Below, in pieces: positions 5,020 through 51,844 of a stretch of DNA of 64,000 bases. The first letter of the stretch is position 1; the number at the start of each line of letters is the position of its first letter. This DNA is from an uncultured Gammaproteobacteria bacterium (GTDB lineage Bacteria; Patescibacteriota; Patescibacteriia; Patescibacteriales; GWC2-42-12). A program made the translations under genes and the position numbers. The stretch lies in the NCBI GenBank assembly GCA_964560005.1, contig CAZLKB010000001.1, positions 13,079-77,078 on the forward strand. Direction: 5' to 3'. The notes beneath the pieces were generated by a model, which made no database searches, was not told where the DNA came from, and saw nothing but the letters and a program-made list of their open reading frames with translations.

Positions 5020-5152
5020 TTTTCAATTTTCAAACAATGACCAATGGATTAATGATTAAATTTTCAAACATGTACTCAATTTAATTAATTGAAAATTAAA
5101 ACATTGAAAATTCATTGAAAATTAGAAATTGAAAATTGAAAATTTTAAATAT
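5004..5152. repeat. heptamer-built inverted repeat ('GAAAATT' subfamily) between the ABC ATPase and permease genes
   Basis: AATTTTCAATTCTCAATTTTCAATTTTCAAACAATG opposes CATTGAAAATTCATTGAAAATTAGAAATTGAAAATTGAAAATT. Confidence 0.85.
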
Positions 5153-9750: not shown

Positions 9751-9960
9751 GATGTAAAATGTAAATCTCAAAATGTAAAATGACAATTTAAAATACAAAA
9801 TAAAAATTCTAAATTCTAATATCTAAATTCTAAATAAAAAGTAATGAATATTGGTTTTTTATTTGAAATTTAGATATTGGAATTTGTTTGGATTTTAGGA
9901 TTTATAATTTTAAATTTTTCATTGTCATTTTACATTTTGAGATTTACATTTTACATTTTA
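9751..9960. repeat. nested inverted repeat: 'TGTAAAA' arms enclosing 'CTAAATT' arms
   Basis: Outer arms GATGTAAAATGTAAATCTCAAAATGTAAAATGACAAT / ATTGTCATTTTACATTTTGAGATTTACATTTTACAT. Inner arms AATTCTAAATTCTAATATCTAAATTCTAAAT / ATTTGAAATTTAGATATTGGAATTT. Confidence 0.9.
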
Positions 9961-11128: not shown

Positions 11129-11245
11129 AAATTGAGCTGATTTTTATATGATTACAAAGATGTTTTTAATAATTTTAGTTTAACAATTAAAATTGATTAG
11201 CGCAACTGCCATGCCACCCCCTTTATTAAAGGGGCCAAACTAATC

Positions 11246-18128: not shown

Positions 18129-18152
18129 ATTATGTTTATATTGAAATAATTA

Positions 18153-18268
18153 ATGCAAAATGTAAATCTCAAAATGTAAAATGACAGTTTAAAATGTAAA
18201 ATGTCAAATTAGAAATTTTAAATTTTGCATTGTCATTTTACATTTTGAGATTTTAACTTTACATTTTT
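18153..18268. repeat. AT-rich inverted repeat, 'TGTAAAA' subfamily
   Basis: ATGCAAAATGTAAATCTCAAAATGTAAAATGACAG opposes TGTCATTTTACATTTTGAGATTTTAACTTTACAT. The right arm supplies the last codons of the DedA ORF (VKNVKLKSQNVK). Confidence 0.85.
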
Positions 18269-18870: not shown

Positions 18871-18980
18871 TAAATTTAAAATTGAAAAATCAAAGTTTAA
18901 AATGACAGTTTAAAATGTAAAATTAATAATTTTTCATTTTACATTGTCATTTTGCATTTTAAAATTTACATTTTCCATTT
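18871..18980. repeat. AT-rich inverted repeat, 'TGTAAAA' subfamily
   Basis: AAATGACAGTTTAAAATGTAAAAT opposes ATTTTACATTGTCATTTTGCATTTTAAAATTTACATTTT, between the ArgRS stop and the DedA start. Confidence 0.8.
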
Positions 18981-18982
18981 TT

Positions 18983-20770
18983 TTACATCTCCTCCACCGT
19001 TTCAATCCCCAATAACCCTAATCCATTCTTTATCACCTGGCTGACCGCCATAATCAGCGCCAATCTGGCCGCCTTAATCTCGTTTTTTGCCTTTAGCACC
19101 GGCACGCTGTGGTAATAATCATTAAATTCCTGCGCCAACTCAAATAAATACTTGGCAATTTCGCTCGGATCATAATTTCTCCCGGCCAAAGCCACAATCT
19201 CCGGATATTTCGCCAGCTTATTCACCAACACCGCCTCCTTCGCTTCTATTAAATTCTCAAATTTCAAATTTCTAATTTCTGACTTCTGACTTCTGACTTC
19301 TGACTTCTTAATTATTGAATTTATCCTGGCTCCCGTATATTGCAAATAGGCCGCCGTATAGCCATCAAATCTTAGGGCTTGCTCAAGATCAAAAGTAATA
19401 ATCTTGTCCGCGCTAACTTTAATCATTTCAAATTTCAAAGCGCCAACCACGATCTTTTCCACTACCTGGTTCAATTTTTCTTTCGGCCAATTTTGATGTC
19501 TTTTCCTGGTTTCTAAAGCCGCCCTCTCCAGAGCCTCCTGGCGCAGATCTTCGTAAGTTATGACATTGCCGGTGCGCGAAGACATCATGCCATCAGGCAA
19601 TTTAACGAATTCATAGCTTAAATGCTTAGTCTCTTGTTTAAAGCCCAAGAGTTCCAAAACCTTAAATAATTGCTTAAAATACAGGCTCTGCCTGACATCA
19701 ACTACGTAAATTGATTTATCTATTTTATATTTTTCAAATTTTTCCATGGCCAGCGGCAGATCGGCCACCGGATAAAGCGCCGTGCCGTCGCTTCTTAAAA
19801 TTACCAAAACGCCTAGATTATATTTATTTAGATCGGCGATAATCGCGCCCTGGCTTTTTATTAAAAATTCTTTCTTATACAGATTGGCGACTATACTTAA
19901 GCCTTTTTCTATCAGCTCATTTTCATAAAAAATGTGTTCAAACCTGACGCCTAACTGCTTATAAATTTCTGAAAAGCCATCAAGGCTCCATTTTCTGGTT
20001 TTCTGCCATAATTTATACTCCTTACCCGTCCGGTTTTCAATTTTTTTCATGATTTCACCTACTTCAATTTTAGCCGTTTCGTTATTTTCCAACTCCTGGC
20101 AAGCCCGAACATAAACTTTTCCCAAAAAGTAACCCTTATTGCCTCCCCTTATATGCTCCCCTCCTTGATAAAGGGGGGCTAGGGGGTATTTTCCTTTTTT
20201 AACGCCTTTAGCAAAGGAGGGTTGGGGAGATTTATAAAATTTTTCCAGCGCCCATAGCGTCTTGGACACATGGATACCAAAATCATTAATATAGGAGACT
20301 GGCATGGCCTTAAAGCCGTTAGCAGCTAAAATTTTGGTTACCGCGTCGCCGTAGCTGATATTGCGCAAATGACCGACATGATATTCTTTGTGAGTGTTGG
20401 CATTGGAAAATTCCACCATGACTTTTTTGTTTTTCCCGTCCTTATTTAAACCATATTCTGCCTTCTCTTCCAGCACTTCTTCAATAATTCCTTCCGCTAA
20501 TTTGGCTTTATTAAAAGTAAAATTAATAAACGGCCCAATCGCCTTGGTAGCCACCACGGTATCGTTCAGCGCCACTTTCCTCATTAATATTTCGGCCATT
20601 TCTACCGCGCTTTTATTAAACTGCTTGGCGATAGTATAGCAAGGCAGGCTTAAATCGCCGAATTCCGGCTTGGGCGGATAGACTAAATCCGCCGGCTTAA
20701 CTAGCTTTTTTTTCAGCGCCGTATTTATGGCGTCGGCAATATTCTCTTTTATTTTTTCCAGAGTATTCAT
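18983..20770 (-). CDS. argS: arginyl-tRNA synthetase
   Basis: ANTHKEYHVGHLRNISYGD (HIGH region) and the C-terminal anticodon-binding region. Two in-frame repeat insertions lie at 19251..19312 and 20141..20240. Confidence 0.93.
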   Translation of the reverse strand: MNTLEKIKENIADAINTALKKKLVKPADLVYPPKPEFGDLSLPCYTIAKQFNKSAVEMAEILMRKVALNDTVVATKAIGPFINFTFNKAKLAEGIIEEVLEEKAEYGLNKDGKNKKVMVEFSNANTHKEYHVGHLRNISYGDAVTKILAANGFKAMPVSYINDFGIHVSKTLWALEKFYKSPQPSFAKGVKKGKYPLAPLYQGGEHIRGGNKGYFLGKVYVRACQELENNETAKIEVGEIMKKIENRTGKEYKLWQKTRKWSLDGFSEIYKQLGVRFEHIFYENELIEKGLSIVANLYKKEFLIKSQGAIIADLNKYNLGVLVILRSDGTALYPVADLPLAMEKFEKYKIDKSIYVVDVRQSLYFKQLFKVLELLGFKQETKHLSYEFVKLPDGMMSSRTGNVITYEDLRQEALERAALETRKRHQNWPKEKLNQVVEKIVVGALKFEMIKVSADKIITFDLEQALRFDGYTAAYLQYTGARINSIIKKSEVRSQKSEIRNLKFENLIEAKEAVLVNKLAKYPEIVALAGRNYDPSEIAKYLFELAQEFNDYYHSVPVLKAKNEIKAARLALIMAVSQVIKNGLGLLGIETVEEM

Positions 20771-20790
20771 ATTAATAATTCTTGCATCTT

Positions 20791-20924
20791 AATGCGAGCA
20801 TAGAAAAATTTAGGATTAGATTTGGCCTAAAATTTATTTACAAACATTTTCCTTTCGGTCGTTTCTGATGAAAATTTTGTTGGAAATTTTAGGCCAAATC
20901 CCTAAATTTTTCTCTAGCGAGCGA
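20791..20924. repeat. 133-nt long-hairpin repeat, copy 2 (copy 1 at 16521..16653)
   Basis: GAGCATAGAAAAATTTAGGATTAGATTTGGCCTAAAATTT... opposes ...AAATTTTAGGCCAAATCCCTAAATTTTTCTCTAGCGAGC. It is followed by the hairpin GCCGCTTTTTCTAAAAAAGCGGC. Confidence 0.85.
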
Positions 20925-20969
20925 TTTTTGCGCCGCTTTTTCTAAAAAAGCGGCCCTGCCCGGAGGGCC

Positions 20970-21779
20970 CTAGCGGAGCTCCGCTTTCTCCACCCTATCA
21001 ATATTTCTTCCTAAAAACTTCTGCCCCAGTTCTTTAAATTTTTTTACATCATCCGTAGTATAAAAAATTAATTTTCCATTCCTGCCTAGTTTCTTTTCTA
21101 CCTCATCATGCCGCTTCAGGTAATCCTTCAATTTCACGGCCGCTACTTCGGCCGGATTAACAATTTTCACATTTTTCCCCATGATTCTTCTAATATCTTT
21201 ATCCATTAGCGGATAGTGCGTACAGCCTAAAATCAGCGTGTCAATTCGCTTAACTTTGAGCGGGTGCAAATATTTTTTTAAAATCATCCTGGTTTCCGGC
21301 TTCCCGATCCAGCCTTCTTCCGCTAGAGGCACAAGCAAGGGGCAAGCTTGCTCAAAAATTTCCAAATCGCTTCGTAATTTTTCCAGTTCTTTTTTATAAA
21401 CGCCGGAATTTATAGTGGCTCTAGTGCCGATGATGCCCAGTTTATGGTAACGGCTTAACTTTATCGCCTCTTCCACGATCGGCACCACCACGCCCAGCAC
21501 GCGCTTAGCCGGGTGATTTTTCGGCAGATATTCCCGTTGTATTCTCTTTAAAGCCTCGGCCGAAGCCGTATGGCAGGCGATAATAACCAGTTCTGCTTCT
21601 TGTTTAAATAAAAAATCAACCGCCTGCCTGGTATATTGATAAACAACTTCGGCGGATTTGTTGCCGTATGGCGTTCTGGCATTATCGCCTAAATAAATAT
21701 AATCATAATCCGGCAGCACTTTTAAAAATTCTTTCAGCACTGTCAGCCCGCCGAAGCCCGAATCAAAAACTCCGATCAT
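20970..21779 (-). CDS. murI: glutamate racemase
   Basis: GVFDSGFGGLTV, IIACHTASA and LGCTHYPL motifs. The track start at 21833 lies inside a repeat arm, so I prefer ATG at 21779 (MIGVFDSG). Confidence 0.93.
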   Translation of the reverse strand: MIGVFDSGFGGLTVLKEFLKVLPDYDYIYLGDNARTPYGNKSAEVVYQYTRQAVDFLFKQEAELVIIACHTASAEALKRIQREYLPKNHPAKRVLGVVVPIVEEAIKLSRYHKLGIIGTRATINSGVYKKELEKLRSDLEIFEQACPLLVPLAEEGWIGKPETRMILKKYLHPLKVKRIDTLILGCTHYPLMDKDIRRIMGKNVKIVNPAEVAAVKLKDYLKRHDEVEKKLGRNGKLIFYTTDDVKKFKELGQKFLGRNIDRVEKAELR

Positions 21780-21795
21780 ACAGTTTTCGTTTAAT

Positions 21796-21949
21796 GGCTG
21801 GCTGGGTGTAAATTTTATTTTGAGAGCATGCAAAATTGTAACAGATTTTTTCTAAAAAATTTACAGTGATATTATTTAATAAATAATTTTTTAGAAAAAA
21901 TCGCCCAAATTTTGTCTAAACGAAAAACAAAATTTACACCTAGCCAGCC
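21796..21949. repeat. nested inverted repeat between tyrS and murI
   Basis: Outer arms GGCTGGCTGGGTGTAAATTTTATTTTG / CAAAATTTACACCTAGCCAGCC. Inner arms GATTTTTTCTAAAAAATT / AATTTTTTAGAAAAAATC. Confidence 0.8.
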
Positions 21950-21972
21950 CTTGCTCTAATATGGCTTAAATT

Positions 21973-23190
21973 TTATCCTTTTACCACTTTTACAAACCCC
22001 CTCTTGCCCTTCTGCAATAATACTCCCTTTTCAGTTATCTCCACAATCTTATTAATATCTTTTTCCACTACTCCATCAACTTTAACCCCGCCCTGCTCCA
22101 CCAACCTCCTGGCTTCGCCCTTGCTGGCCGCCAAATCTGCCTTCACTAATAACTCCATAATATTCATACTTCTTACTTCTAACTTCATACTTCTTACTTC
22201 TTCCGGCACTTCTTTCTTCTGCACGGTTTTTATAAAATATTCCTGCGCCTCATTGGCTTTTTTTTCCCCATAATTGATTTTCGTAACAGCAAAAGCCAAT
22301 TTCATCTTGGCGTCCCTGGGATTGGCGCCATTTTTTAATTTACTCAAAATATCTTTTATCTCCGTTGTCGGCAGGTTGGTGCATAACTCAAAGCCGGCGA
22401 GCAGGATTCCGTCCGGCCAAGACATAATCTGACCGTACATATTCTCCGGAGTTTCATCCAAATTAACCATATTACCCTCGCTTTTTCCCATCTTCTTGCC
22501 GCTGGAATCAACCAATAATTTCAAAGTCAAAACGCATTTCTCCTTATTTCTCATGGCCTTCATTAAATCCCGGCCGCAAAGCATGTTAAAAGTCTGATCA
22601 TTGCCGCCGATTTCCAGGTCAACCTCCATAGCCACACTATCGTAAGCCTGGGCTATCGGATATAAAAATTCATGGAAATAAATCGGCTTGTTCTGTTTTA
22701 TTCTTTCCTGGAACATGTCTCTTTGCATAATTTGCTGGGCGGTAAAATTAGAAGTCACTTCAATTAAATCTCTAAAACTCAATTTATCGCTCCACTTGCT
22801 GTTAGACATTATCTTGGCCGGATTGTCGCCGCTGAACTTTAGATAAGACGAAGCTTGTTTTTTATAGTTTTTGGCATTAGCCAGAACCTGCGCCCGAGTC
22901 ATTTTTTTTCTGGCCGCGGTTTTATCGGTCGGGTCGCCGATCATGCCGGTAAAATCCCCGATCAAAAATATTACTTCATGGCCTAATTCCTGAAATTGCG
23001 CCAATTTGCCTAAAGTAATCGCATTGCCAATATGCAGAGCCGGCGCGCTCGGGTCATAACCGCAATAAAGCCTAATACGCTTACCGGACAAAAGCGTCTT
23101 TTCCAAGGCTTCGCGGTTAGGGTAGATATTTTCCACGCCTCTGGTCAAAACCTCATCAACCTTTTGCTTATCGGTTATAATTTTTACCAT
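21973..23190 (-). CDS. tyrS: tyrosyl-tRNA synthetase
   Basis: YCGYDPSAPALHIGN (HIGH), KMGKS and a C-terminal S4-like domain. An in-frame heptamer-repeat insertion lies at 22157..22212 (EEVRSMKLEVRSMNIMEL). Confidence 0.95.
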   Translation of the reverse strand: MVKIITDKQKVDEVLTRGVENIYPNREALEKTLLSGKRIRLYCGYDPSAPALHIGNAITLGKLAQFQELGHEVIFLIGDFTGMIGDPTDKTAARKKMTRAQVLANAKNYKKQASSYLKFSGDNPAKIMSNSKWSDKLSFRDLIEVTSNFTAQQIMQRDMFQERIKQNKPIYFHEFLYPIAQAYDSVAMEVDLEIGGNDQTFNMLCGRDLMKAMRNKEKCVLTLKLLVDSSGKKMGKSEGNMVNLDETPENMYGQIMSWPDGILLAGFELCTNLPTTEIKDILSKLKNGANPRDAKMKLAFAVTKINYGEKKANEAQEYFIKTVQKKEVPEEVRSMKLEVRSMNIMELLVKADLAASKGEARRLVEQGGVKVDGVVEKDINKIVEITEKGVLLQKGKRGFVKVVKG

Positions 23191-23265
23191 ATATTTATAA
23201 TTATTATAAAAGAATTTACACGGTTAGTCGACAATTTAATAGAATTAAGCATGGAGCTAAGATAT

Positions 23266-23460
23266 CAGACGAAGATTTTAGTTTTGGGCGGCTCCTCTGT
23301 GCTTTCCTCGGAGCTAAGAAGGGGAACGGAGACGAAATTGTAGTAATTTTTTCTTTAAATTATTCAATTTCACTTTTGGCCATTTCGGTCTTTACCTATT
23401 GAATAATTTAAAGAAAAATACACAAATTTCGTCTAAGCAAAAAACTAAAATCCTCGTCTG
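23266..23460. repeat. nested inverted repeat between nagB and tyrS
   Basis: Outer arms CAGACGAAGATTTTAGTTTT / AAAACTAAAATCCTCGTCTG. Middle arms GACGAAATTGTAGTAATTTTTTCTTTAAATTATTCAAT / ATTGAATAATTTAAAGAAAAATACACAAATTTCGTC. Confidence 0.8.
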
Positions 23461-23473
23461 ATGTCTCACGCCT

Positions 23474-24211
23474 CTAGCCACTAATTATTAAATCTCCGGC
23501 CGCGGCCCGATCTAAAATCACAGTTAAATTTTTATGCTTCCTTAAAATCGAGGCCGGTACCGACTTGGTCATCCTGCAGCTTAGCGCCTTCTTAATAATC
23601 TTAGCCTTAGCCTCGCCCGAAGCCATTAAGATTATTCTTTTGGCTTTCATGATAGTGCCTAACCCCATAGTAATGGCTTGCCGCGGCACCTCCCTTAAGC
23701 TATTAAAATCCTTGGAATTGGAACGCCTGGTTTGTTCCGTTAACTTTATTACTCTGGTTTTTGAATTAAAATTTGAACCCGGTTCATTAAAACCGATGTG
23801 GCCGTCTAAACCAATTCCTAAGACTACTAAATCAAGACTCCCCTGCCGCTTAATCAAGCCGTCATATATAATACATTCCTCCTTTAGATTTTCAGCCTGC
23901 CCGTTCGGCGCGAATATATTTGTTTTTTTGATATCAACTCGGCTAAAGAGCTTAGCTTTTAAAAAATAGTGAAAACTTCGCCTATTATTCTTAGCCAAAC
24001 CGACATATTCATCCAGCAAAAAGGCTTTTATTTGTTTAAAACTTACCTCCTTTTTCCGACGCGCTTTAGCCAGACTGTCATAAAGTCCGATAGGCGTACT
24101 GCCGCTAGGCAAGCCTAAAACCGTATTTTTATCCTGTTTAATCTGTTTTACAACCAGCCGAAAGGCCGCTTTTGACATTGCCCGGTAATTATTGGCAATA
24201 ATAATTTCCAT
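23474..24211 (-). CDS. nagB: glucosamine-6-phosphate deaminase / 6-phosphogluconolactonase family protein
   Basis: VLGLPSGSTPIGLY, LDEYVGL and GIGLDGHIGFNEPGS motifs. Confidence 0.85.
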   Translation of the reverse strand: MEIIIANNYRAMSKAAFRLVVKQIKQDKNTVLGLPSGSTPIGLYDSLAKARRKKEVSFKQIKAFLLDEYVGLAKNNRRSFHYFLKAKLFSRVDIKKTNIFAPNGQAENLKEECIIYDGLIKRQGSLDLVVLGIGLDGHIGFNEPGSNFNSKTRVIKLTEQTRRSNSKDFNSLREVPRQAITMGLGTIMKAKRIILMASGEAKAKIIKKALSCRMTKSVPASILRKHKNLTVILDRAAAGDLIISG

Positions 24212-24333
24212 AGTTTTATTCTAACATATATTGAAATTTCAGCAAATTTTAGGGCTGCGCCCGGGTTGCCTGTTTCCGGAGCTTTGGTATAATGAAATCT
24301 AAACGAAGCGCATTTAATTCTTACGATATATAA

Positions 24334-24415
24334 TGCGAATACTACAAATTATATTCAAATACTACAAAAAAATATTTATCGGATATTTGTAGTATTCGCA
24401 TTCCATTTGTAACAT
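24334..24415. repeat. AT-rich inverted repeat, 'ACTACAAA' subfamily, in the divergent nagB/activase promoter region
   Basis: TGCGAATACTACAAATT and TTCAAATACTACAAAAA oppose ATATTTGTAGTATTCGCA and CCATTTGTAACATT. Confidence 0.8.
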
Positions 24416-24428
24416 TAGGATTATACTT

Positions 24429-27400
24429 ATGCCTAAAACCAATCTCATTATTATTGATGCCGGGGTGGAACATATCCATTTTGGCATCTACCAAGGCTCG
24501 CAAATAAAAAATCTCTTGATCACAAATAACGATAAAATCGAAACTCTTTTTAAAAACCATGACGTTTTAAAGCTGATTCAGGACCCGGCCGTTGAATTGT
24601 ATCTGACCGGCAAATTGGCGGAAATTATTAGGGCTACGGTCGGGCGCGGGCAGATTATTATGCCCAGCGCCGCGCTTTGGGCCGGAGCTAATTTTTTATT
24701 ATCCGAACTCAATAAAAATTCACTCGGCATAATCGACCTGTCGGCTTCGGGCTATATGGCCATCGCCGTTGACCGCGAGGGCAAGCTCTTAAACGACCTC
24801 TTAATCACCAATCCCCGCTGCGGCGCCGGCAGCGGCATAAATTTAAGCCGGATTTTAGAAAAACTGGCGATCGAAACCCAAGCCGTCGACGAAATCTTAA
24901 AAGATTATTTAGGAGTAGCCGGCCAGGCTAAGAGGCAGGGCGTGGGTATCCGGGCCGACCGTTGCGGCGTTTTCAGTTCCTCGGCCACGATTTCCGACAA
25001 AAACCAGGGCCTGCCCCTGAATTTCGCCCTGGCCGTTACCATGAAATCGGAAGTGCTTAAGGCATGTAAAAAAATGATACCGGACATTGAAACGGTTTAT
25101 CTAACCGGCCGGGTATTTAACTGGCAATACGCCCGTGACTGCGCCGAGGATTACCTTAAAACTATCGGCGTTAAAGAAATAATTTTCGACCAAGGGCAAA
25201 CCCTAATGATTAAGAGCGCTAAACACCTGATTGATGCCGTCGGCCGAGAAAATTTTAAAGAGCAAACCGGGAAAAAATTAAAAAAAGAAGAAAAATTGTT
25301 AGACCTGCCCTCATTTAAAAGCTTAAAAGAAAAATATACCTCCGCCGGCTTGTTTTTAAGGCTCGACGATCCGAAAATCTCCGAAATTAATCACCTGGCT
25401 TTCCAAACCAGACCGGTGAATATCGGCTTAGACGTGGGCTCAACCATGGCTAAAATGCTGATTACGGACGCGGCCACGGGCGAAATCTTATTTTTAAACT
25501 CCTCTGACAACCACGGCGACACCATTGAAACCATTAAGCATATTTTCCGCGGTTTACAGTCGGCCGGCATCACTAAGCTTAACATCCAACACCTGGGCAT
25601 CACCGGCAGCGGGCGTTATCAAGTGCAAAAAGTCTTGCAAAAAGTTTATCCGGGGCTGGCAGACAAAATTTTTGTCTTGGTGGAAAATTACGCTCACGCT
25701 CATGGCTCCATTGAATACGCTAAAGCGCATATCCAAGATTTAACCAAACAAGGCCAGGAAGTTAATCCGGACTTTTGCGTCTTGGTTGATATCGGCGGCG
25801 AAGACACCAAAATTTCCATTATCTCCCTGAAAAAGGAAGAGCTATTTGACAACGCCATGAACATAAAATGTTCGGCCGGAACCGGCAGCTTAATGGACAC
25901 GCTTAAGGCTTTATTCGGCATCAAAGACATAAAAGAGGCTTGCCGGCTGGCCTATGAAGCGGAAAAGGCTTATGAAATTAACGCCACTTGCGCGGTCTTC
26001 TTAATGGAAAACGCACGCGCGATGCAGGGCCAGGGTTATGCCAAGAGTGAAATTCTAGCTTCAGCGAATTACGCCATCGTAGAAAATATGGCCCGAACCC
26101 TTTGGAACCAGGTAAATTTTCCTAAAAACGCGGTCGTGCTCTTGCACGGCCAAACCATGCTCTCCGACCCCCTGCCCCTGGCGGTAACGCGGCGGATTCA
26201 GGAAACCGGAACCATGTATGCGCTGGTGCCGCCTCTGCCGGGCCATCGCGCTTGTTTAGGCTTGATTAAATCAATAAAAAATAAAACCTTCACGGAAAAT
26301 ATTTGCCTGCTGGCTGACTTTATTAATCTTAAATTTGATAAAAAAATAGTTATTTGTCGAGGCGCGGCCTGCGGCGATCAAGCGGCCCGTTGCTCAAGGA
26401 CCTTGCTTAATTCTATCAACCTGGAAGAAAAATTAGTTTTAACGCTGGGTGGCTGCACGGCGGTCAACGAATTAGCATCTAAAAATATTACGGCCGAAAA
26501 AACCCCGGACGCTTACAAAGAAATCTGGCTATTTATCAACCAGGCCCAGCCAAAGTCCCAGGCTAATAACCGCTTGGTTATTCCTCGCAGTTTCGCTATT
26601 TCCGAGCAAGCATTTTTCCTGGCTAAAATCTTTGAAAAACTAGGCATTCCCGTTGAAGTCGATAATGTCCGGGAGACGGATGTTATCGAGGCTCAGCCTC
26701 TATTCAATATTGATGTCTGCGCGCCCTTAATCGGGGCGGCTGGGCAATTTATCAGATTGGCCAAAGCGCCGCACGGCCTTATCCTGGTGCCGCAAATTGA
26801 TTTTTTACCGACTGAAGGCATCAGTCTGGGCAGAACCTGCACTACCAACCAAGGCGGCGTGATTATTGCCGAGCGCATGGCAAAACAAAAATATCCGGCG
26901 GCTAATTTTTATTCCTTTGTCTTAAGCTTAAAAAAAATGGATTCCGAGTATCTGGCCGACCAGTTCTATAGTAAGCTCGACGGATTATTTAAGTATTATA
27001 AATTACCTGTCTCCCGGCCGGAATTTAAACAGGCAATCGAATATGCCGTTAAAGAAAATCGGGATCTGCAAGAGCGCCTGGCCCAGCAGGTTGCCCGATA
27101 TCTGGAAGAGGCGATCCGGCAAAAAAAGAATATCGCCATCGTTTGCGGGCGTGAATATATTTTAAATCCCGGAATATATGACAGCCACGTGGGCAAGCTC
27201 CTAAAGGACAAGGCGGTCATCGCCATTCCCTCCTATGCTCTAAACAGCCGGCTGGATAAGGATTTTGCTTACGTTTACTGGCGCAATCCGCATGATATTC
27301 TAACCAAAATCAATGCCATCACCAATAAAAAATTTCATACTCTGATTATATCGCCTCGGCTTAAGCAATTATTCAAATCTATCGAAACCGGTCTCACCGA

Positions 27401-29171
27401 TTCTTTAATCTCCGCGGTCAGAATTTCTACTTTTAGATGCGGACCAGATACGGTCATCGCTCCGGTTCTTAGTGAAATCACTAAAAAAACACCCAGTCTT
27501 TTCATTCAATCAGACGCCATGATAAAGGAGCTGGCGCATCTGGAAAACCGGGTTAATACTTTTCTTAATCAGTTAAACCAGAAATTGCATGAAGAGTTCT
27601 CCCAAGCGCGTTTCGAGTTAAAACTTATCGACGAGTTCGGGGGAGCGGTCTTGAATAAAGACACGGACGTGATCTATTTTCCCACTCTTAACGATAATCG
27701 GCCGATTACCGCCATCTTCCGAGCGGCGGGATATACTGTAATTGACAATTACGAAAATGAATCTTATGACCTGGAGCATAAAGTGAGATTAGGCAGAAAA
27801 TATGCCGGCGATTCGGTCTGTGCGCCTTTAGCGGCGGTATTCGCCGATATGATGCTGGCTAATGAGGATTTTATAAAGAGAAACAAAGAGCAGGACCCTC
27901 TGCTCAAAGACAAAACCAGGATTATTGTCTTTGACAATAAGGGTACCGGCCCTTGCCGGCAGGGCCAATATTATGAAATGCATAAACTGCTCTTAAGCAA
28001 ACAATTCGGCTGTAACGCCTGCCGGGGTTCTAGCCGGACCTTAGAATATCCAATCAAGCTGCTGGTCGGCCACGAGAAAGATGGTTTTAATGTGGGCTTG
28101 GATGAATGGGCGCTGATTCAATCCTTCCAGGGGATTGTTTTACAGGGAGTTTTACATGCCATTCTCTTGCGTGCCGGCGCCGCCTGCCAGGACTATGATC
28201 ATTACCAAAAATTTTATGAAGATTATATTAAACTAAAAAACGACATCAACAAAATCTTAGAAACCAAAAGCCGGCCCAATAAAACCATACTGGCTATGGC
28301 GCCGGCCATCGGCAAAAAATCTCTAATAGGCGGAGCCATTTTTAAATACTTCGGTTACGGATTGTACAGGAATAACGGCTTAAGAAAAATTCTAAAAAAA
28401 TTCTCCAGAAAATGGATAAAAAACTCCAATCGCGCAGACTATCCAGGTATTGTCATTCCGACCCCGCATTTTGCGGGGGAGGAATCACTTGAACATGGAA
28501 ATGGCGCAAAAGGAATTATTAAACAATCTGAGGAAAGATCAGATAAAATTAAAATTCACATTGAAGGCGAAGCCTATATGCGAGTAGCGCAAGTGGAGGA
28601 AATATTCAAGTCTCTCGTTGACGCCATCGGTTTCAGGTCTTTTACGGCGACATACTCTCCTCTTTGGTGCTATCTGGAGCTATTATTGGAATTCGCCATT
28701 TTAGAATGCCGAGGAGAAATCAGTTTAAGCAAGAGCCAAAAAGAAATTAAGGAAAAGCAAAAACTAATCTCAAAAATTAAAAAATTAATAATAGTTCTAA
28801 GAAAAGTTTTAGCCCAGCCCCTATATAGAGCGGCCAAAATTACCATGCCCGAAGAAATGAGGCTGGTTTTAGAATCGGCCAGGCAAATTTTACCCTCGCT
28901 TAAGCCGCACGGTGAACTGCCGCCCTACCTGGGCGAAGCGATTTTACAAATAAAACACGGTACGGATTTATTCCTTAACGTCGCGCCCGAGGGCTGCATG
29001 GTTTCATCCATGGGCGCGCTCTTCTCCTATCCCATACTTAAGTCCGGCGGACGACCGGCCAGAATTCAAGATCTGTTTACCTTAAACGGCGAAGTTGATG
29101 ACGAGCAGTTAAAAATGTCCTTATTAAAAACCCTTGGACCGGAGAGGTATTATCGTAAAGCTTATAAATAA
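24429..29171 (+). CDS. fusion of two HgdC/BcrAD-BadFG-type activase ATPase modules with DUF2229/HGD-D (2-hydroxyacyl-CoA dehydratase-like) domains; PlsA/PlsR-like
   Basis: Module 1 has NPRCGAGSGINLSRILEKL and ADRCGVFSSSATIS. Module 2 has IGLDVGSTMAKMLITD, KCSAGTGSLMDTLKALFG and NATCAVFLMENA. The C-terminal half has IPRSFAISEQAFFLAKIFEKLGIPVE, DVCAPLIGAAGQ, FRCGPDTV, GDSVCAPLAAVFADMM and GTGPCRQGQYYEMHKLL. Confidence 0.85.
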   Translation: MPKTNLIIIDAGVEHIHFGIYQGSQIKNLLITNNDKIETLFKNHDVLKLIQDPAVELYLTGKLAEIIRATVGRGQIIMPSAALWAGANFLLSELNKNSLGIIDLSASGYMAIAVDREGKLLNDLLITNPRCGAGSGINLSRILEKLAIETQAVDEILKDYLGVAGQAKRQGVGIRADRCGVFSSSATISDKNQGLPLNFALAVTMKSEVLKACKKMIPDIETVYLTGRVFNWQYARDCAEDYLKTIGVKEIIFDQGQTLMIKSAKHLIDAVGRENFKEQTGKKLKKEEKLLDLPSFKSLKEKYTSAGLFLRLDDPKISEINHLAFQTRPVNIGLDVGSTMAKMLITDAATGEILFLNSSDNHGDTIETIKHIFRGLQSAGITKLNIQHLGITGSGRYQVQKVLQKVYPGLADKIFVLVENYAHAHGSIEYAKAHIQDLTKQGQEVNPDFCVLVDIGGEDTKISIISLKKEELFDNAMNIKCSAGTGSLMDTLKALFGIKDIKEACRLAYEAEKAYEINATCAVFLMENARAMQGQGYAKSEILASANYAIVENMARTLWNQVNFPKNAVVLLHGQTMLSDPLPLAVTRRIQETGTMYALVPPLPGHRACLGLIKSIKNKTFTENICLLADFINLKFDKKIVICRGAACGDQAARCSRTLLNSINLEEKLVLTLGGCTAVNELASKNITAEKTPDAYKEIWLFINQAQPKSQANNRLVIPRSFAISEQAFFLAKIFEKLGIPVEVDNVRETDVIEAQPLFNIDVCAPLIGAAGQFIRLAKAPHGLILVPQIDFLPTEGISLGRTCTTNQGGVIIAERMAKQKYPAANFYSFVLSLKKMDSEYLADQFYSKLDGLFKYYKLPVSRPEFKQAIEYAVKENRDLQERLAQQVARYLEEAIRQKKNIAIVCGREYILNPGIYDSHVGKLLKDKAVIAIPSYALNSRLDKDFAYVYWRNPHDILTKINAITNKKFHTLIISPRLKQLFKSIETGLTDSLISAVRISTFRCGPDTVIAPVLSEITKKTPSLFIQSDAMIKELAHLENRVNTFLNQLNQKLHEEFSQARFELKLIDEFGGAVLNKDTDVIYFPTLNDNRPITAIFRAAGYTVIDNYENESYDLEHKVRLGRKYAGDSVCAPLAAVFADMMLANEDFIKRNKEQDPLLKDKTRIIVFDNKGTGPCRQGQYYEMHKLLLSKQFGCNACRGSSRTLEYPIKLLVGHEKDGFNVGLDEWALIQSFQGIVLQGVLHAILLRAGAACQDYDHYQKFYEDYIKLKNDINKILETKSRPNKTILAMAPAIGKKSLIGGAIFKYFGYGLYRNNGLRKILKKFSRKWIKNSNRADYPGIVIPTPHFAGEESLEHGNGAKGIIKQSEERSDKIKIHIEGEAYMRVAQVEEIFKSLVDAIGFRSFTATYSPLWCYLELLLEFAILECRGEISLSKSQKEIKEKQKLISKIKKLIIVLRKVLAQPLYRAAKITMPEEMRLVLESARQILPSLKPHGELPPYLGEAILQIKHGTDLFLNVAPEGCMVSSMGALFSYPILKSGGRPARIQDLFTLNGEVDDEQLKMSLLKTLGPERYYRKAYK

Positions 29172-29185
29172 AATTTTATAAAAAA

Positions 29186-29215
29186 ACGACTCAATTTTTT
29201 GGGGTCGTCTTTTTA
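29186..29215 (+). terminator. rho-independent terminator after the 1580-aa gene
   Basis: The ACGAC...GTCGT stem is followed by CTTTTTAAAA. Confidence 0.55.
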
Positions 29216-29243
29216 AAATACTTTTTAATTACATTTCAATACC

Positions 29244-29414
29244 ACCAATGGGGTTTGGGGTGCCGAGCTGAGCGACATAGCGCGAGGGATAAAAGTCATT
29301 AAGGGCACTAGCGAATTGAGGCACCCCACCCCGCAAAATGCGGGGTTGGTTACTTTTTAGTTATAAAAAGTAACCCTTAGCGGAGCGTCACGGATATATT
29401 TACTGATAAACGGC
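29244..29414. repeat. ~165-nt structured repeat, copy b
   Basis: Same architecture as 12138..12300. The outer stem here is GGGGTGCC...GGCACCCC (compensatory relative to GGGGGTCC...GGACCCCC) and the hairpin is GGTTACTTTTTAGTTATAAAAAGTAACC. Confidence 0.85.
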
Positions 29415-29477
29415 TAAAAAATAATAATAACTTGATGATTAGCCAGGATTCCAGTCGAAAGTTGCTATAACATTGAA

Positions 29478-32400
29478 TTACAAATTTTTTAATTGCTCTC
29501 TAAACTTCTCTAATTCTGCCTGCCACCCCGCTAATTTCTCTTTTTCTTTTTTCACGATCTCGGCCGGCGCATTACTAACGAATTCCTTATTAGCCAGCCT
29601 AGCTTCCGCGGCCTTAATTACTTTTTCCAGATTAACAATTTCCTTTTCCAGTCTGGCCTTCTCTTTGGCTTTATCCACGGCTCCAACCAAATATATTTCT
29701 ATATCGCCAACGGCCGCGTAAATCGCGCCGGCAATTTTCTCTCCTTTAGTTTTAATTTCTAACTCACTAATGCCGGTGCGTAAACTTTTTATTAAGTGCG
29801 CCTGCTCGGTTATTAATTTTTTCCGCTTACCCGCATAAATCACCGCTTTAACTTTCTGCCCTGGCTCAACTTTATTTTCCGCGCGCGCGTTGCGGATAGC
29901 GACAATAATCTCTTTCACCACCTCAAACTCTATTTTGTCATTCTGGAGCGAAGCGATAGAATCTGATTTCGGCCATTTCTCCACCATTAAAAAAGTTTTA
30001 TGCCCCATCTTTTGCCAAATTGTTTCCGTCACGAATGGCATAAACGGATGCCAGAGCTTTAATAAATTTTCTAAAACATAATTTAATATCCGGCTCTTTT
30101 CTTCATTTTTTTCAAACTTGCTGGCCTCTAAATACCAATCGGCTAAATCATCCCAGGTGAATTCGCGCAAACTCTCCCCGGCCTGCGAAAAACTATAACT
30201 TTCCAAATCTTCGGTTACTTTCTTTATTAACTCTTCCATTTTTCCCAATATCCACCTGTCCGATATTGTTAGATTCTTTAAGTTTAATTCATTATTCATG
30301 ATTCGTGATTCATGATTCGTGATTATATAACGCGCCACGTTCCACAGCTTATTGGTAAAATTCCTGAAACTGGCGATTTTATCTTCGCTATATTTGGCGT
30401 CGTTGCCCGGCGTATTGCCCATTAACAGCGATAAGCGAACCGCGTCGGTGCCGAATTTATCAATCATCTCCAGCGGGTCAATGCCGTTGCCTTTTGATTT
30501 GCTCATTTTCTTGCCGTTCTTATCCAGTATCATGCCGTGCAGATATACTTTTTCGAACGGAATTTCGTTTAAGGCGTAAAAAGACATGATAATCATGCGC
30601 GACACCCAGAGGGTAATTATTTCATAGCCGGTTTCTAAGACCTGCGTGGGATGAAACCTGGCTAAATCACCCGATTTTTTGCCTTTAACATAATTATCCG
30701 GCCAGCCCAAAGTGGAGAAGGTCCAGGTGCCGGAAGAAAACCAGGTGTCTAAAGTATCTTCATCTTGAACCCAAAAATCTTTTTTCAATTCATTTAATAT
30801 ATCTTGGCATTCATCGCTATTAAAATGCGAGGCGGAATTTTCAACTTTAATTATTTTCGCGTCTAGCGCAACGGCTATTTCAGCAACCTCTTCCGCAGTG
30901 ACTGCGTGATCCTCTCCGGCTTGAAAGATTACTATTTCTCCGACATTTTCTTTTATTTTCTTAAAATCGTATTTATAATTTTTATACTCTATTAACTCCT
31001 TCTTTTTTGTTCTTAGGGAAGGAGCCAGCATGACCAGCTTTTTTATTTTTAAATTACTGCTCTGTATTATTTTTAACGCTAAGGCACTGCCTAATGAATG
31101 CGTCACTATAATGGAATTTTTATCTATTTTAGCACTAGCCAAGACAAACTTTTCCTGCTCATCGCGATTAGGTTTATCCGGATTGGGCAAGATCTGCCAA
31201 AAATTTTCTTGATTCGGCAATTGCTTGTTTAACCAATTTAACGGGTCCTTTACATCTCTGGTACGATAAAAACCGTGCAAAAAAACAAAATTAGAATTCT
31301 GCGGCGCTTCCGCGCCGACATAAATTTCTTGGTCCTTATCTTCTAACTTCTTACTTCTACCTTCTGCCTTCTTATACCAAACCGGTATCCTATGCCCGAA
31401 CCAAAGCTGGCGCGAAACACACCAATCGTGCAGATTATTCATCCAGTCCAGATACCTTTTTTTGAATCTCTCCGGGATAAATTCGATCTTTCCGTCAGCG
31501 GCCGCCGCGATGGCTTTTTCCTTTAGCGACTTTCCACCCAAACGTTTCAATTTCTTGTCCACGTCCACGAACCATTGCTTTGACGGTATAGGTTCGATTT
31601 GCGTGCCGCAGCGGTAGCATAACGCGATATTATGCAGATAGCCGTCTTCAATATGGTCAAGCAAACCCATTTTTTCCATGTCGGCCAAAATCGCCTCCCG
31701 CGCTTCTTTAGTGGTCAAACCGGCGTATTTACCCGTATTGGCCATCATCCGGCCTTGTTCATTTATGACTTGCTTCATGGCCAGATTATGCCTTTGGGCA
31801 ATTTGATAATCCGTAAAGTCATGGGCCGGCGTAACTTTAATCGCGCCTGAGCCGAATTTAGGATCAACCGCCCGGTCGGCCACCACGATAATTTCAAATT
31901 CACCCAGCACGCCCGGTATTTTATATTTCTTGCCCACCATTTTCTCGTAGCGCTTATCTCCCGGGTAAACTGCCACGGCCGTATCGCCCAATTTTGTTTC
32001 CGGACGAGAAGTGGCCAAAACGAATGGACCGTATTTCAGCCAATACAATTTGCCTTTTTCTTCTTTATATTCCACCTCGTCATCGGCTAAAGTGGACTGG
32101 CACCTGGGGCACCAATTTACCACCCTGACTCCGCGATAAATCACGCCTTCGTCATACATATCCACAAACAGCTTTTTCACTGCCTTGGCCCGCGGCTCAT
32201 CCAAGGTAAAGGCCTGGCGCGACCAATCCAAAGACGCGCCCATCTTTCTGGTCTGGCGCAAAATCGTAGCCTGGGTCTCCCGCAAAAATTGCCAAACCCT
32301 TTTTAAAAATTCTTCTCGACCTAAATCGTGGCGCGTTTTTTTCTCTTCCTGCCACAATTTTTTTTCCACCACGTACTGCGTAGCGATGGGCGCGTGGTCC

Positions 32401-32657
32401 GTGCCCGGAATCCAAAGAGCACGTTCGCCCTTCATCCGATGATAACGAATCAGTAAGTCTTCTATGGCCAGCATGGCCGAATGCCCCAGATGCAATTTAT
32501 CCGTAATGTTGGGTGGAGGCAGAACTATGGTGTACGGTTTGGCCGTTTTAGGCAAGCCTAAGTTATCCGGATTAAAAAATCCCGACTTTTCCCACTTTTC
32601 ATAAACGCCGTCTTCGTATTCGGCCGGATTATATATTTTCGGCAATTCTACAGACAT
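29478..32657 (-). CDS. valS: valyl-tRNA synthetase with a nested alpha/beta serine-hydrolase domain
   Basis: PNITDKLHLGHS (HIGH), the CP1 editing domain, WCVSRQLWFGHRIPVWY, QDEDTLDTWFSS, KMSKSKGN and a C-terminal coiled coil. A 202-aa segment separates VWY from QDEDT, where only a short peptide is expected. Confidence 0.95.
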   Translation of the reverse strand: MSVELPKIYNPAEYEDGVYEKWEKSGFFNPDNLGLPKTAKPYTIVLPPPNITDKLHLGHSAMLAIEDLLIRYHRMKGERALWIPGTDHAPIATQYVVEKKLWQEEKKTRHDLGREEFLKRVWQFLRETQATILRQTRKMGASLDWSRQAFTLDEPRAKAVKKLFVDMYDEGVIYRGVRVVNWCPRCQSTLADDEVEYKEEKGKLYWLKYGPFVLATSRPETKLGDTAVAVYPGDKRYEKMVGKKYKIPGVLGEFEIIVVADRAVDPKFGSGAIKVTPAHDFTDYQIAQRHNLAMKQVINEQGRMMANTGKYAGLTTKEAREAILADMEKMGLLDHIEDGYLHNIALCYRCGTQIEPIPSKQWFVDVDKKLKRLGGKSLKEKAIAAAADGKIEFIPERFKKRYLDWMNNLHDWCVSRQLWFGHRIPVWYKKAEGRSKKLEDKDQEIYVGAEAPQNSNFVFLHGFYRTRDVKDPLNWLNKQLPNQENFWQILPNPDKPNRDEQEKFVLASAKIDKNSIIVTHSLGSALALKIIQSSNLKIKKLVMLAPSLRTKKKELIEYKNYKYDFKKIKENVGEIVIFQAGEDHAVTAEEVAEIAVALDAKIIKVENSASHFNSDECQDILNELKKDFWVQDEDTLDTWFSSGTWTFSTLGWPDNYVKGKKSGDLARFHPTQVLETGYEIITLWVSRMIIMSFYALNEIPFEKVYLHGMILDKNGKKMSKSKGNGIDPLEMIDKFGTDAVRLSLLMGNTPGNDAKYSEDKIASFRNFTNKLWNVARYIITNHESRIMNNELNLKNLTISDRWILGKMEELIKKVTEDLESYSFSQAGESLREFTWDDLADWYLEASKFEKNEEKSRILNYVLENLLKLWHPFMPFVTETIWQKMGHKTFLMVEKWPKSDSIASLQNDKIEFEVVKEIIVAIRNARAENKVEPGQKVKAVIYAGKRKKLITEQAHLIKSLRTGISELEIKTKGEKIAGAIYAAVGDIEIYLVGAVDKAKEKARLEKEIVNLEKVIKAAEARLANKEFVSNAPAEIVKKEKEKLAGWQAELEKFREQLKNL
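30774..31298 (-). other. inserted YdeN/RBBP9-like serine-hydrolase domain inside valS
   Basis: FVFLHGF, LPNPDKPNRDE, IIVTHSLGS (Ser codon 31095-31097), FQAGEDHAV (Asp 30909-30911) and SASHFN (His 30825-30827). Confidence 0.7.
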
Positions 32658-32795
32658 AAAAAAATTTTTAATTTTGTAATTTTTAAAATAATTTCTAATT
32701 TTTAATATCTAAATATTTTATTATTTAGAAGTTTTATTAAAAATTAGGATATTTGAAATTATTTAAAAATTAAAAATTCAAAAATTAAAAATTAC
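32658..32795. repeat. AT-rich inverted repeat, 'TAAAAAT/GAAAATT' subfamily, directly upstream of valS
   Basis: AATTTTTAATTTTGTAATTTTTAAAATAATTTCTAATTTTTAATATCTAAATA opposes TATTTAGAAG...AAAAATTAGGATATTTGAAATTATTTAAAAATTAAAAATTCAAAAATTAAAAATT. Confidence 0.8.
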
Positions 32796-35370: not shown

Positions 35371-35444
35371 AGGGCATGTAGCTCAGCTGGTTAGAGCGTG
35401 GCTCTTATAAAGCCAAGGTAGATGGTTCGAGTCCATCCATGCCC
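35371..35444 (+). tRNA. tRNA-Ile, anticodon UAU
   Basis: Hand-folded cloverleaf. Acceptor GGGCATG/CATGCCC, D arm GCTC-AGCTGGTTA-GAGC and anticodon stem TGGCT/AGCCA. The anticodon loop is C-T-TAT-A-A, the T arm is GATGG-TTCGAGT-CCATC and the discriminator is A. No CCA is encoded. Confidence 0.85.
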
Positions 35445-35464
35445 ACTTAGGTAATATAAATTTA

Positions 35465-48417: not shown

Positions 48418-48420
48418 AAA

Positions 48421-48530
48421 AAATGTAAAGTGTAAAAATCAAAATGAAAAATGACAATTTAAAGTTTAAAATGAATTAATAATTTTACATTTTGCATTAT
48501 CATTTTACACTTTGAGATTTACATTTTAAA
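48421..48530. repeat. AT-rich inverted repeat, 'TGTAAAA' subfamily, directly upstream of uvrC
   Basis: AAATGTAAAGTGTAAAAATCAAAATGAAAAATGACAAT opposes ATTATCATTTTACACTTTGAGATTTACATTTTAAATT. Confidence 0.85.
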
Positions 48531-48605
48531 TTATATTACCACTTCCCCCAATAAAAAACAACTCTTATCTCTAAAAGTTGTTTTTTACTTCTGACTTCTA
48601 ATTTC

Positions 48606-48782
48606 TTACTTAACCTCAATCGCCTGCACCGGACAGCTCTCGGCCGCGTTTTTGGCGCAAGGCAAATCTTCCTCGCTGATCACTTCGGCCTTGCCTTCGG
48701 CGTTCATCTTGAAAACCGCCGGGCAGAGGGCTTCGCAGGTGCCGCAGCCGATGCATAATTCTTTATTGACTTTGATGGACAT
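48606..48782 (-). CDS. small single-cluster ferredoxin (58 aa, below the ORF-track cutoff)
   Basis: Hand translation gives MSIKVNKELCIGCGTCEALCPAVFKMNAEGKAEVISEEDLPCAKNAAESCPVQAIEVK. It has the C-x-x-C-x-x-C...CP pattern of short 4Fe-4S/3Fe-4S ferredoxins. The + ORF 48652..48840 is its antisense shadow. Confidence 0.8.
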   Translation of the reverse strand: MSIKVNKELCIGCGTCEALCPAVFKMNAEGKAEVISEEDLPCAKNAAESCPVQAIEVK

Positions 48783-48953
48783 AAGGTTAAAATTTTTAAT
48801 TTTAAATTTTATAATTTTTAAACAATTTTTAATGATTTAATTTTCAATTTTAAAACAGGCCTTTAAATATATTTTGTTTAAAAATTTAAGTATTAAAAAT
48901 TGAATATTGTTTAAAAATTAATAATTAATAATTAATAATTGAAAATTTGTCTT
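48783..48953. repeat. AT-rich inverted repeat between gyrA and the ferredoxin gene
   Basis: AATTTTTAATTTTAAATTTTATAATTTTTAAACAATTTTTAATG opposes ATTAAAAATTGAATATTGTTTAAAAATTAATAATTAATAATTAATAATTGAAAATT. AATTAAT is repeated three times in tandem. Confidence 0.8.
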
Positions 48954-51713: not shown

Positions 51714-51844
51714 TCCCGCCCGTCTCGCCGTATCGTAGCCGAGGCGGACGAAGGCGGCTTGCCCGCCTTGGGTGAGGAATCAAAATTATTGCTTAATTAA
51801 TTTTACATTTTAAATTGTCACTTTACATTTTGATTTTTACATTT

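Follow-up and report, generated by a model that had tools for sequence, protein, structure and literature searches.

Tandem heptanucleotide arrays within loop regions of three aminoacyl-tRNA synthetase genes in a Patescibacteria genome

In the stretch of DNA analysed here (64,000 nucleotides of contig CAZLKB010000001.1, hereafter the window), the genes for the arginyl-, tyrosyl- and valyl-tRNA synthetases (ArgRS, TyrRS and ValRS) carry four in-frame segments composed of tandem units of seven nucleotides (nt). These segments are probably, though by no means certainly, the coding-region members of heptanucleotide simple-sequence repeats that occur genome-wide, and they would have grown in place by misalignment and been filtered by selection. 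Judged from its sequence, the host is a member of the Patescibacteria (Candidate Phyla Radiation, CPR) near the Falkowbacteria; the closest database proteins of all three synthetases come from metagenome-assembled genomes (MAGs) of Patescibacteria, many of which are labelled Candidatus Falkowbacteria.

Heptamer arrays in the synthetase genes

The three genes and the four arrays (with copy numbers according to Tandem Repeats Finder, TRF; aa, amino acids) are as follows.

18983-20770, minus strand: ArgRS, 595 aa (Pfam tRNA-synt_1d, DALR_1 and Arg_tRNA_synt_N; PDB homologs 2zue and 1bs2)
21973-23190, minus strand: TyrRS, 405 aa (Pfam tRNA-synt_1b, SYY_C-terminal and S4; PDB homolog 6bqy)
29478-32657, minus strand: ValRS, 1059 aa, with an inserted Ser_hydrolase domain at aa 461-616 (Pfam; PDB homolog 1gax; orthologs)
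19251-19312, minus strand: ArgRS heptamer array (TRF 19251-19308, two overlapping arrays of 4.0 and 5.6 copies)
22157-22212, minus strand: TyrRS heptamer array (TRF 22163-22202, 5.7 copies; ortholog tables)
30287-30325, minus strand: ValRS site 1 array (TRF 30287-30324, 5.4 copies; orthologs)
31335-31374, minus strand: ValRS site 2 array (TRF, 5.6 copies; orthologs)

The DNA strings and peptides given for the four arrays in a preliminary description of this DNA match the sequence exactly. Its statement that they are tandem 7-nt units was borne out both by reading unit by unit and by TRF, with 4.0-5.7 period-7 copies at all four sites.

On the coding strand, the ArgRS array begins with the codons AAG AAG TCA (KKS) and continues with (AGAAGTC)x4, two units AGAAATT and one unit TGAAATT. 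It encodes aa 488-507 (KKSEVRSQKSEIRNLKFENL), the loop that follows the ARINSI helix in the anticodon-binding (DALR) domain. The TyrRS array starts at GAA GAA GTA (EEV) and consists of two 21-nt units, (GAAGTAA GAAGTAT GAAGTTA) and (GAAGTAA GAAGTAT GAATATT), which encode aa 330-343 (EEVRSMKLEVRSMN) where the helical domain meets the S4-like domain. In both genes the starting codons are followed by a variable loop. At ValRS site 1 the units ATCACGA ATCATGA ATCACGA ATCATGA ATAATGA encode aa 778-791 (IITNHESRIMNNEL), which comprise the end of helix 758-781 and the loop after it, where the anticodon-binding domain begins. At ValRS site 2, TAT AAG AAG G is followed by CAGAAGG TAGAAGT AAGAAGT TAGAAGA, and aa 428-441 (YKKAEGRSKKLEDK) are encoded. 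The ValRS arrays start in the conserved flank codons ATA ATC ACG AAT (IITN) and TAT AAG AAG (YKK) and likewise extend into a variable loop. The fact that the arrays start in conserved flank codons points to an origin in place from a local seed and not from a foreign element.

The preliminary description had regarded all four segments as insertions. The lengths of the orthologs confirm this for ValRS site 2 and, weakly, for ArgRS, whereas TyrRS shows no net gain and ValRS site 1 about one residue. At ValRS site 2, a true insert of 12 aa turns the usual WYKGEEIYVG of the orthologs into WYKKAEGRSKKLEDKDQEIYVG, and the AlphaFold2 (AF2) model predicts a disordered loop (predicted local distance difference test, pLDDT, <50 for aa 431-440). 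The ArgRS loop comprises 41 aa in comparison to 35-36 aa in repeat-free and 37-39 aa in close relatives (+3 to +6 aa). In orthologs this loop is hypervariable in length (35-48 aa), and the length in the window lies inside the range of the solved structures, as the ArgRS of P. horikoshii is 4 aa longer and the yeast ArgRS 1 aa shorter. ValRS site 1 has 32 aa between the anchors (modal length 31) and equals its closest orthologs; orthologs mostly read ITNYELRITNYE (ATTACGA units) at the length found in the window. The AF2 model has a mean pLDDT of 65 in block 781-790.

For the comparison of the TyrRS linker, loci of relatives were fetched around TyrRS. Identity was at most 65% among the matches listed by the search of genome contigs, and the close relatives came from a metagenome search. 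The 153 loci yielded 143 distinct linkers. The window linker has the modal length between conserved anchors, which is common to 83 of the 143 linkers and to all 19 of those that bear an array; homologs in the PDB differ from the window protein by +4 aa or -1 aa. Lag-7 identity of at least 0.5 occurred in 19/143 linkers, while each of the other lags between 3 and 12 gave 0-3 such linkers. In the AF2 model of TyrRS, beta strands are predicted at aa 333-337 and 341-343 (mean pLDDT 83 in block 331-340 and 61 in block 321-330), and these short strands before the S4-like domain account for the fixed linker length.

Beside its array sites, the ValRS of the window contains a Ser_hydrolase domain (PF06821, E = 7e-9; window 30810-31280, minus strand; aa about 455-625) between ...YVGAEAPQ and FWVQDEDTLDTWFSS. 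This domain is absent in the closest ValRS orthologs, which comprise 905 aa and have 82% identity. At that loop, PF06821 or a histidine phosphatase domain (PF00300) is present in many further ValRS proteins of CPR, and some of the inserts comprise 290-700 aa. The AF2 model of the window insert shows an alpha/beta fold with block-mean pLDDT values of 52-90.

Heptamer arrays across the window

The arrays of the synthetase genes are part of a strong excess of period-7 repeats: in the 64-kb window 36 period-7 arrays were detected, in comparison to 2.8 expected from third-order Markov shuffles. In a strict scan, nine arrays were found at period 7 and 0-1 at each period from 4 to 12, so that no other period is comparably enriched. 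Period-7 arrays account for 11% of the intergenic but only 0.9% of the coding bases. They occur in 14 of the 39 spacers, two of which consist of arrays to 78% and 96%. The units comprise AGAAGTN, ATCAYGA, AAAATTC, ATTTTAC, TTGAAAA, TTAAAAA and others.

The pattern AGAAGTNAGAAGTNAGAAGT (up to 3 mismatches) was matched at 18 overlapping positions in five places (0.03 expected by chance), namely in ArgRS, TyrRS, ValRS site 2, UvrC and at the stop codon and 3' untranslated region (UTR) of a ferredoxin-like open reading frame (ORF). The similarity of the Glu/Arg/Ser/Lys-rich peptides, which had been pointed out before, holds for three of the synthetase arrays (ArgRS, TyrRS and ValRS site 2) and arises because these have one unit family, AGAAGTN, in common. 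It had also been considered that the segments might be ordinary loops lacking nucleotide similarity to the intergenic repeats. This does not apply, as the ArgRS array is, at its AT-rich end, complementary to the intergenic array at 18206-18225 in 19/20 bases.

The arrays are no special feature of synthetases, since others were found in UvrA, in UvrC and in a Wzy-like ORF. Four of the about eight genic arrays of the window lie in synthetase genes (a post hoc count). The other genic and gene-border arrays are listed below.

13947-13982, plus strand: in-frame (AAAATTC)x5 array in UvrA, aa 289-300 (TRF; Pfam UvrA domains; translation)
47782-47820, minus strand: in-frame array of AGAAGTT/AGAATTA units that encodes aa 200-212 (IIKNLEVRIKELE) of UvrC, between its GIY-YIG and RNase H domains (TRF)
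48580-48613, minus strand: AGAAGTN array over the stop codon and 3' UTR of the small ferredoxin-like ORF, upstream of a terminator-like hairpin (pattern match)
7687-7718, minus strand: (TTTTCAA)x4.6 array in the Wzy_C-like ORF 6803-8434 (putative start), read as NQFSIFNFQFSK (TRF)
8197-8226: second array in the Wzy_C-like ORF (TRF)

The ferredoxin-like ORF (about 58 aa, MSIKVNKELCIGCGTCEALCPAVF..., about 48607-48783, minus strand) is below the ORF length cut-off used, and its likeness to 4Fe-4S ferredoxins was recognised by eye.

As 7 is not divisible by three, successive copies of a 7-nt unit pass through all three reading frames. In TyrRS, an in-frame TAA codon would result from a perfect GAAGTAA repeat; this position is occupied by the variant TTA. 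The resulting 21-nt higher-order repeat is a sign of selection on the coding array. Of 15 AT-rich intergenic units, 10 contain stop codons in both orientations. The genic units are richer in G+C because most intergenic units have such stop codons, and the placement of AGAAGTC on the sense strand can be ascribed to the avoidance of stop codons as well.

No RNA structure was predicted for the four genic arrays (z = -1.43, +0.95, -1.08 and +1.32). Inverted partners of the genic arrays were not found in the window, where palindromes are formed only by intergenic arrays, and a search for terminal repeats, target duplications and palindromes at the genic arrays gave none.

The Logan assembly of SRR12133404 is 100% identical to the window across 3218 nt spanning the TyrRS array, and dozens of independent MAGs have arrays at the corresponding protein sites. 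An independent identical assembly together with same-site arrays in unrelated MAGs excludes an assembly artefact.

Arrays at orthologous sites in relatives

In relatives with 63-81% protein identity, the TyrRS linker is encoded by near-perfect arrays whose units differ by lineage (loci are designated by L numbers).

L088: (ATTATCA)x4
L095: (AATTACA)x4
L105: (AAGTTAC)x4
L099-L101: (ACATGGA)x4
L001: (AAATTGG)x4
L016: (GAAGCYG)x4
L025: (CCAATWT)x4

The same holds for the other sites. In the ArgRS loop, the units AAGCCAA, AAGTCAA and AAGTCGA occur in relatives, and the array of L088 is close to that of the window. At ValRS site 1, the units ATTACGA, ATTACCA, CCCAATT and GAACATG were found. Many heptamer-coded inserts are present at ValRS site 2, for example VRSKKLEVRS, KSKVKSQKSKV, TINNKQLTINN and NAECRMQNAEC. 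In relatives, units without a stop codon in any of the three frames are found as perfect heptamers. The ORFs are intact across the arrays, and frameshifted alleles were not found in the relatives examined. Many relatives have a loop of equal length that bears no array. The lengths of the ArgRS loop and of ValRS site 2 vary among relatives, the closest of which have only about 80% protein identity, and the array length in TyrRS is constant. The encoded peptides are unrelated among relatives (e.g. EVRSMKL, IINYQLS, TWNMEHG and IGSWKLA), and a function of the peptide is therefore very unlikely.

In L049 (5281-5351), ValRS site 1 carries (GAACATG)n and, 15 nt further on, (AAGTTCC)n, which is nearly its reverse complement, so that an imperfect inverted pair lies in a coding region.

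The density of arrays is patchy across CPR loci, with values between 0 and about 1 per kb. Where TyrRS bears an array, the rest of the locus also has more period-7 arrays (Mann-Whitney p = 0.005), and GC-matched pairs of units differ by at most one base in 40% of the cases within a locus in comparison to 7.4% between loci. The genic arrays are thus tied to the own repeats of each genome.

Pairwise divergence of the linker core and its flanks in TyrRS was determined from MAFFT alignments. Mean identities of linker versus flank were 0.60 versus 0.72 for pairs with arrays and 0.555 versus 0.72 for pairs without arrays, and the conservation of the array pairs is bimodal. The core was more conserved than the flanks in 12/52 array pairs versus 5/181 non-array pairs, where the pairs are not independent of each other. 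In comparison to L100, L104 shows an identical A-to-G change in each of two units that lie 14 nt from each other. Homogenisation of the arrays with occasional replacement agrees with these patterns, although recombination or selection may also be involved. Separately, the mosaic conservation among L084, L085 and L090 suggests segmental recombination or rapid replacement.

Proposed origin and alternative explanations

In the proposed mechanism, the nascent strand would misalign by one 7-nt step during replication or repair, by which arrays would be created as well as homogenised. A transient out-and-back misalignment could copy a neighbouring unit at constant length. Intergenic arrays would expand freely, often as inverted pairs that give rise to long hairpins, and in genes a short seed in conserved codons would spread to the adjacent tolerant loop. 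Selection would then retain the reading frame, the absence of stop codons from the three frames of the unit, a tolerable peptide and, where the structure demands it, the length of the loop. The outcome would be a loop overwritten by the repeat, mostly without lengthening, rather than an inserted element, and the array as such would be neutral. Peptide repeats of seven residues would be a by-product, because three units of 7 nt make 21 nt, and synthetases would be affected because of their large size, multiple domains and permissive linkers.

Several points weigh against this explanation. Slippage is deduced from the pattern of the arrays, and the clusters of ArgRS, TyrRS and ValRS at 90% identity have a single member each. 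The step size of 7 nt is not accounted for by the present results. The TyrRS segment is partly predicted to be structured, as the two beta strands and the high pLDDT of block 331-340 indicate, and hence cannot be regarded as a free spacer. The five AGAAGTN arrays are all found on the mRNA-sense (minus) strand, which would also fit a role at the transcript level. Insert lengths, both at ValRS site 2 and in the ArgRS loop, do not come in steps of 7 aa; simple gains of three units are therefore not the whole story, and other indels contribute. Furthermore, the array cores of L084 and L090 are 98% identical while their flanks share only 74%, and L084 and L085 have flanks with 90% identity and a linker core with 58%, the linkers being unrelated. 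This pattern could be due to homogenisation, recombination or selection on DNA or RNA.

The last possibility leads to a maintained function of the nucleic acid, in which the arrays would bind a factor that reads single- or double-stranded nucleic acid with a 7-nt period, e.g. a cold-shock/OB-fold or nucleoid protein, and would be kept in transcripts including coding regions. CspB of B. subtilis is described to bind direct heptamer repeats with one protein per heptamer (reviewed in PMC4679880). The persistence of arrays at these four sites in relatives with as little as about 60-65% protein identity would agree with such a role, as would the four perfect units in several lineages, which show no decay, the one array pair far more similar than its gene, and the sense-strand position of all AGAAGTN arrays, one of them in a 3' UTR beside a terminator-like hairpin. 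We nevertheless consider this role rather unlikely, because the units at the same site are wholly different among relatives, many relatives manage with a loop of equal length and no array, the genic arrays are unstructured, the host genes are unrelated and share no common theme, and the mean conservation of the linker is below that of its flanks. The function of the encoded peptide or of an RNA-level element, which the preliminary description had offered as one possibility, accordingly found no evidence in the wholly different peptides and the folding scores (z from -1.4 to +1.3). A related and likewise unlikely idea is that a heptamer-specific active process in CPR lineages re-homogenises the arrays at fixed length and that they are kept for a role at the transcript or DNA level. 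A property of the replicase or of repair could be responsible, or a factor that binds or writes 7-nt periodic sequence. If so, loop sequences of essential enzymes would be dictated by a nucleic-acid signal and not by the protein.

Active insertion, the other possibility offered before, would imply a small selfish or mobile repeat element of which only in-frame insertions survive, comparable to the Rickettsia palindromic elements (RPE). The net gain of 12 aa at ValRS site 2 would be expected from such an element, as would the excess of 3-6 aa in the ArgRS loop over repeat-free relatives, the AGAAGTN unit at five places of the window, the likeness of units within a genome and the match of the ArgRS array to an intergenic array. 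However, a net insertion is lacking in TyrRS and at ValRS site 1. The starting points of the arrays are conserved codons of the host genes (KKS, EEV, YKK and IITN), the arrays grade into the flanks, terminal repeats, target duplications and palindromes are missing from the genic arrays, and array lengths and units vary continuously between relatives. No evidence for the insertion of an element was thus obtained, and this explanation appears quite improbable. Selection at the protein level for a structural repeat of seven residues (a beta-hairpin or heptad), with the DNA period as by-product, has in its favour the two short predicted strands and fixed length of the TyrRS segment and the 7-residue peptide repeats. 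It is very improbable all the same, because the 7-nt period spans three frames and selection on amino acids cannot yield the four perfect units seen in several lineages, because the peptides are unrelated, and because identical units also lie in intergenic DNA. Short repeats in an AT-rich genome can finally come from chance low complexity or mis-assembly, but the excess of arrays and of pattern matches over expectation, the identical independent assembly and the orthologous arrays in dozens of MAGs leave practically no room for this. An origin by misalignment and selection in place is therefore preferred.

Comparison with known repeat systems

The arrays of the window belong to the prokaryotic heptanucleotide simple-sequence repeats, with at least three tandem copies, an excess of period 7 and a mostly intergenic location. 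In the overviews contained in PMC4679880 and PMC4692102, heptanucleotide repeats are given as the most abundant class of long simple-sequence repeats in many bacteria, and slippage of a polymerase with a contact length of 7 nt is mentioned as their proposed origin (Mrazek and co-workers 2007). As far as the surveys are summarised there, the repeats described by Mrazek and the arrays reported here agree in the tandem 7-nt units, the strong excess over other periods, the mainly intergenic location and the restriction to some lineages. The summaries also reveal differences. Genic repeats in the surveys mainly had unit lengths divisible by three, whereas the present arrays have in-frame units of 7 nt within essential genes, occupy orthologous loops with units that differ between relatives, and leave the loop length mostly unchanged. 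In addition, the repeats were linked to large GC-rich genomes, and the present host is a CPR bacterium with a small genome.

Abundant intergenic heptamer arrays are also known as the TAACTGA repeats of marine Beggiatoaceae, cyanobacteria and some Bacteroidetes (PMC4679880). A minority of them lies in ORFs, in the stop-free orientation, and gives the 7-residue peptide repeat LSVISYQ (PMC4679880). That system, however, has one unit, which mostly precedes start codons at a short distance, and repeats of related heptamers are rare (PMC4679880). In the window many units coexist, none of which is TAACTGA, and the intergenic arrays are typically inverted hairpin pairs. The GGGNATC repeats of Xanthomonas and Nostoc resemble the present arrays as dispersed heptamers with about four favoured units in intergenic positions near gene ends (PMC4692102), but they are G-rich, form quadruplexes and are rarer on coding strands (PMC4692102). 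The units reported here are AT- or purine-rich and lack G-tracts. The STRR heptamers of cyanobacteria, reportedly described by Mazel et al. in 1990, are grouped with the dispersed heptamer arrays as well. Since no unit of the window matches TAACTGA, STRR or GGGNATC, the arrays were not assigned to any of these families.

In Borgs, DNA tandem repeats likewise occur in intact ORFs, form new and often disordered segments, and differ between homologs (PMC9879509). The units of Borg ORF repeats are all divisible by three and add sequence (PMC9879509), whereas here the unit has 7 nt and the loop is mostly replaced. Membership in the amino-acid repeats of the Borg type was rejected, as a 7-nt unit is not divisible by three.

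RPE are said to have been found by Ogata et al. in 2000 in frame in protein-coding genes of Rickettsia. They share with the present arrays the in-frame position of repeated DNA at surface sites of essential proteins and a peptide without conserved function. RPE are, however, about 100-150 bp long, palindromic and net insertions, whereas the present arrays comprise 35-60 nt, are non-palindromic, seeded in host codons and mostly length-neutral. As the genic arrays are unfolded and short and their units differ between sites and genomes, they are not of the RPE type. Phase-variable contingency loci are coding simple-sequence repeats in surface or restriction-modification genes, in which a change in copy number shifts the reading frame. 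The likeness consists in short tandem repeats within coding sequence. The arrays reported here do not represent contingency loci, because they lie mid-gene or near the 3' end of essential housekeeping genes (aminoacyl-tRNA synthetases, UvrA and UvrC) and off alleles were not found in relatives.

For heptamer or other simple-sequence repeats in Patescibacteria/CPR, nothing relevant was found in the literature searched, which may miss descriptions. Within that literature, the CPR setting, the occurrence in orthologous loops of essential enzymes with lineage-specific units, and the overwriting of loops at constant length appear to be new. Repeat units that are not a multiple of three should normally be eliminated from coding DNA, and from essential genes in particular. 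The arrays, which recur in frame across a clade of uncultured bacteria, are a clean natural example of a mutational process at the DNA level that dictates the sequence of protein linkers. They may serve as a read-out of polymerase misalignment in unculturable organisms and as fast-evolving markers within otherwise conserved genes, and CPR genomes with and without arrays make the old proposal of a 7-nt polymerase contact length testable. Caution is advisable in the alignment, phylogeny and annotation of CPR proteins, because array segments are not homologous residue by residue.

Intergenic palindromes and further features of the window

Several spacers of the window contain heptamer arrays in the form of palindromes.

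18152-18265: intergenic palindrome, (AAAATGT)n facing (ACATTTT)n, arms of 57 nt, 82% complementary (inverted-repeat search; fold -43.6 kcal/mol, z = -10.6)
18872-18981: second intergenic heptamer palindrome, in the spacer of ArgRS and the downstream VTT-domain gene, 96% period-7 array (inverted pairs; z = -3.4)
48420-48532: third intergenic heptamer palindrome, upstream of UvrC (TRF; fold z = -5.6)

The motif AAAATGTAAAATGWCA was matched 14 times (0.29 expected). Inverted heptamer arrays also build the spacers of same-strand genes at 9752-9960 and 51800-51853, with hairpin arms of about 55 nt. Further inverted pairs are located at 5004-5144, 32663-32794 and 48791-48940, and similar pairs occur in the CPR loci L033 and L048. 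Such spacers look like a family of dispersed palindromic elements or terminators.

A second type of in-frame extra consists of short GC-rich segments, often small palindromes of the form CCCCCC-TTTnnAAA-GGGGG, which are read as P(L/F)xKGG. They were seen in the window at 20140-20232 (ArgRS aa 181-212), 61829-61847 and 11217-11234, and in the relatives L083, L102, L003, L085 and L096. Examples are PLLKGG in the ORF 60631-63579 and PQPPFVKGG and PLAPLLKGG in ArgRS orthologs. In relatives, GC-rich hairpins are also nested within heptamer arrays (LPAGRK, SPPAGG). The GC-rich insert at ArgRS aa 181-212 was considered as a hairpin element and rejected for the window copy, which has a fold z of -0.05; a related small palindrome is present elsewhere.

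Between the synthetase genes, an ORF of 1580 aa (24429-29171, plus strand) possesses a BcrAD/BadFG ATPase domain and DUF2229, which corresponds to the CoA-enzyme activase type. The Rfam scan of the whole window gave two tRNAs and nothing else. A tRNA-Ile with the anticodon TAT (UAU) lies at 35372-35446 and adjoins a tRNA-Val(GAC). An isoleucine tRNA with UAU is uncommon in bacteria, in which AUA is usually decoded by a lysidine-modified CAU tRNA.

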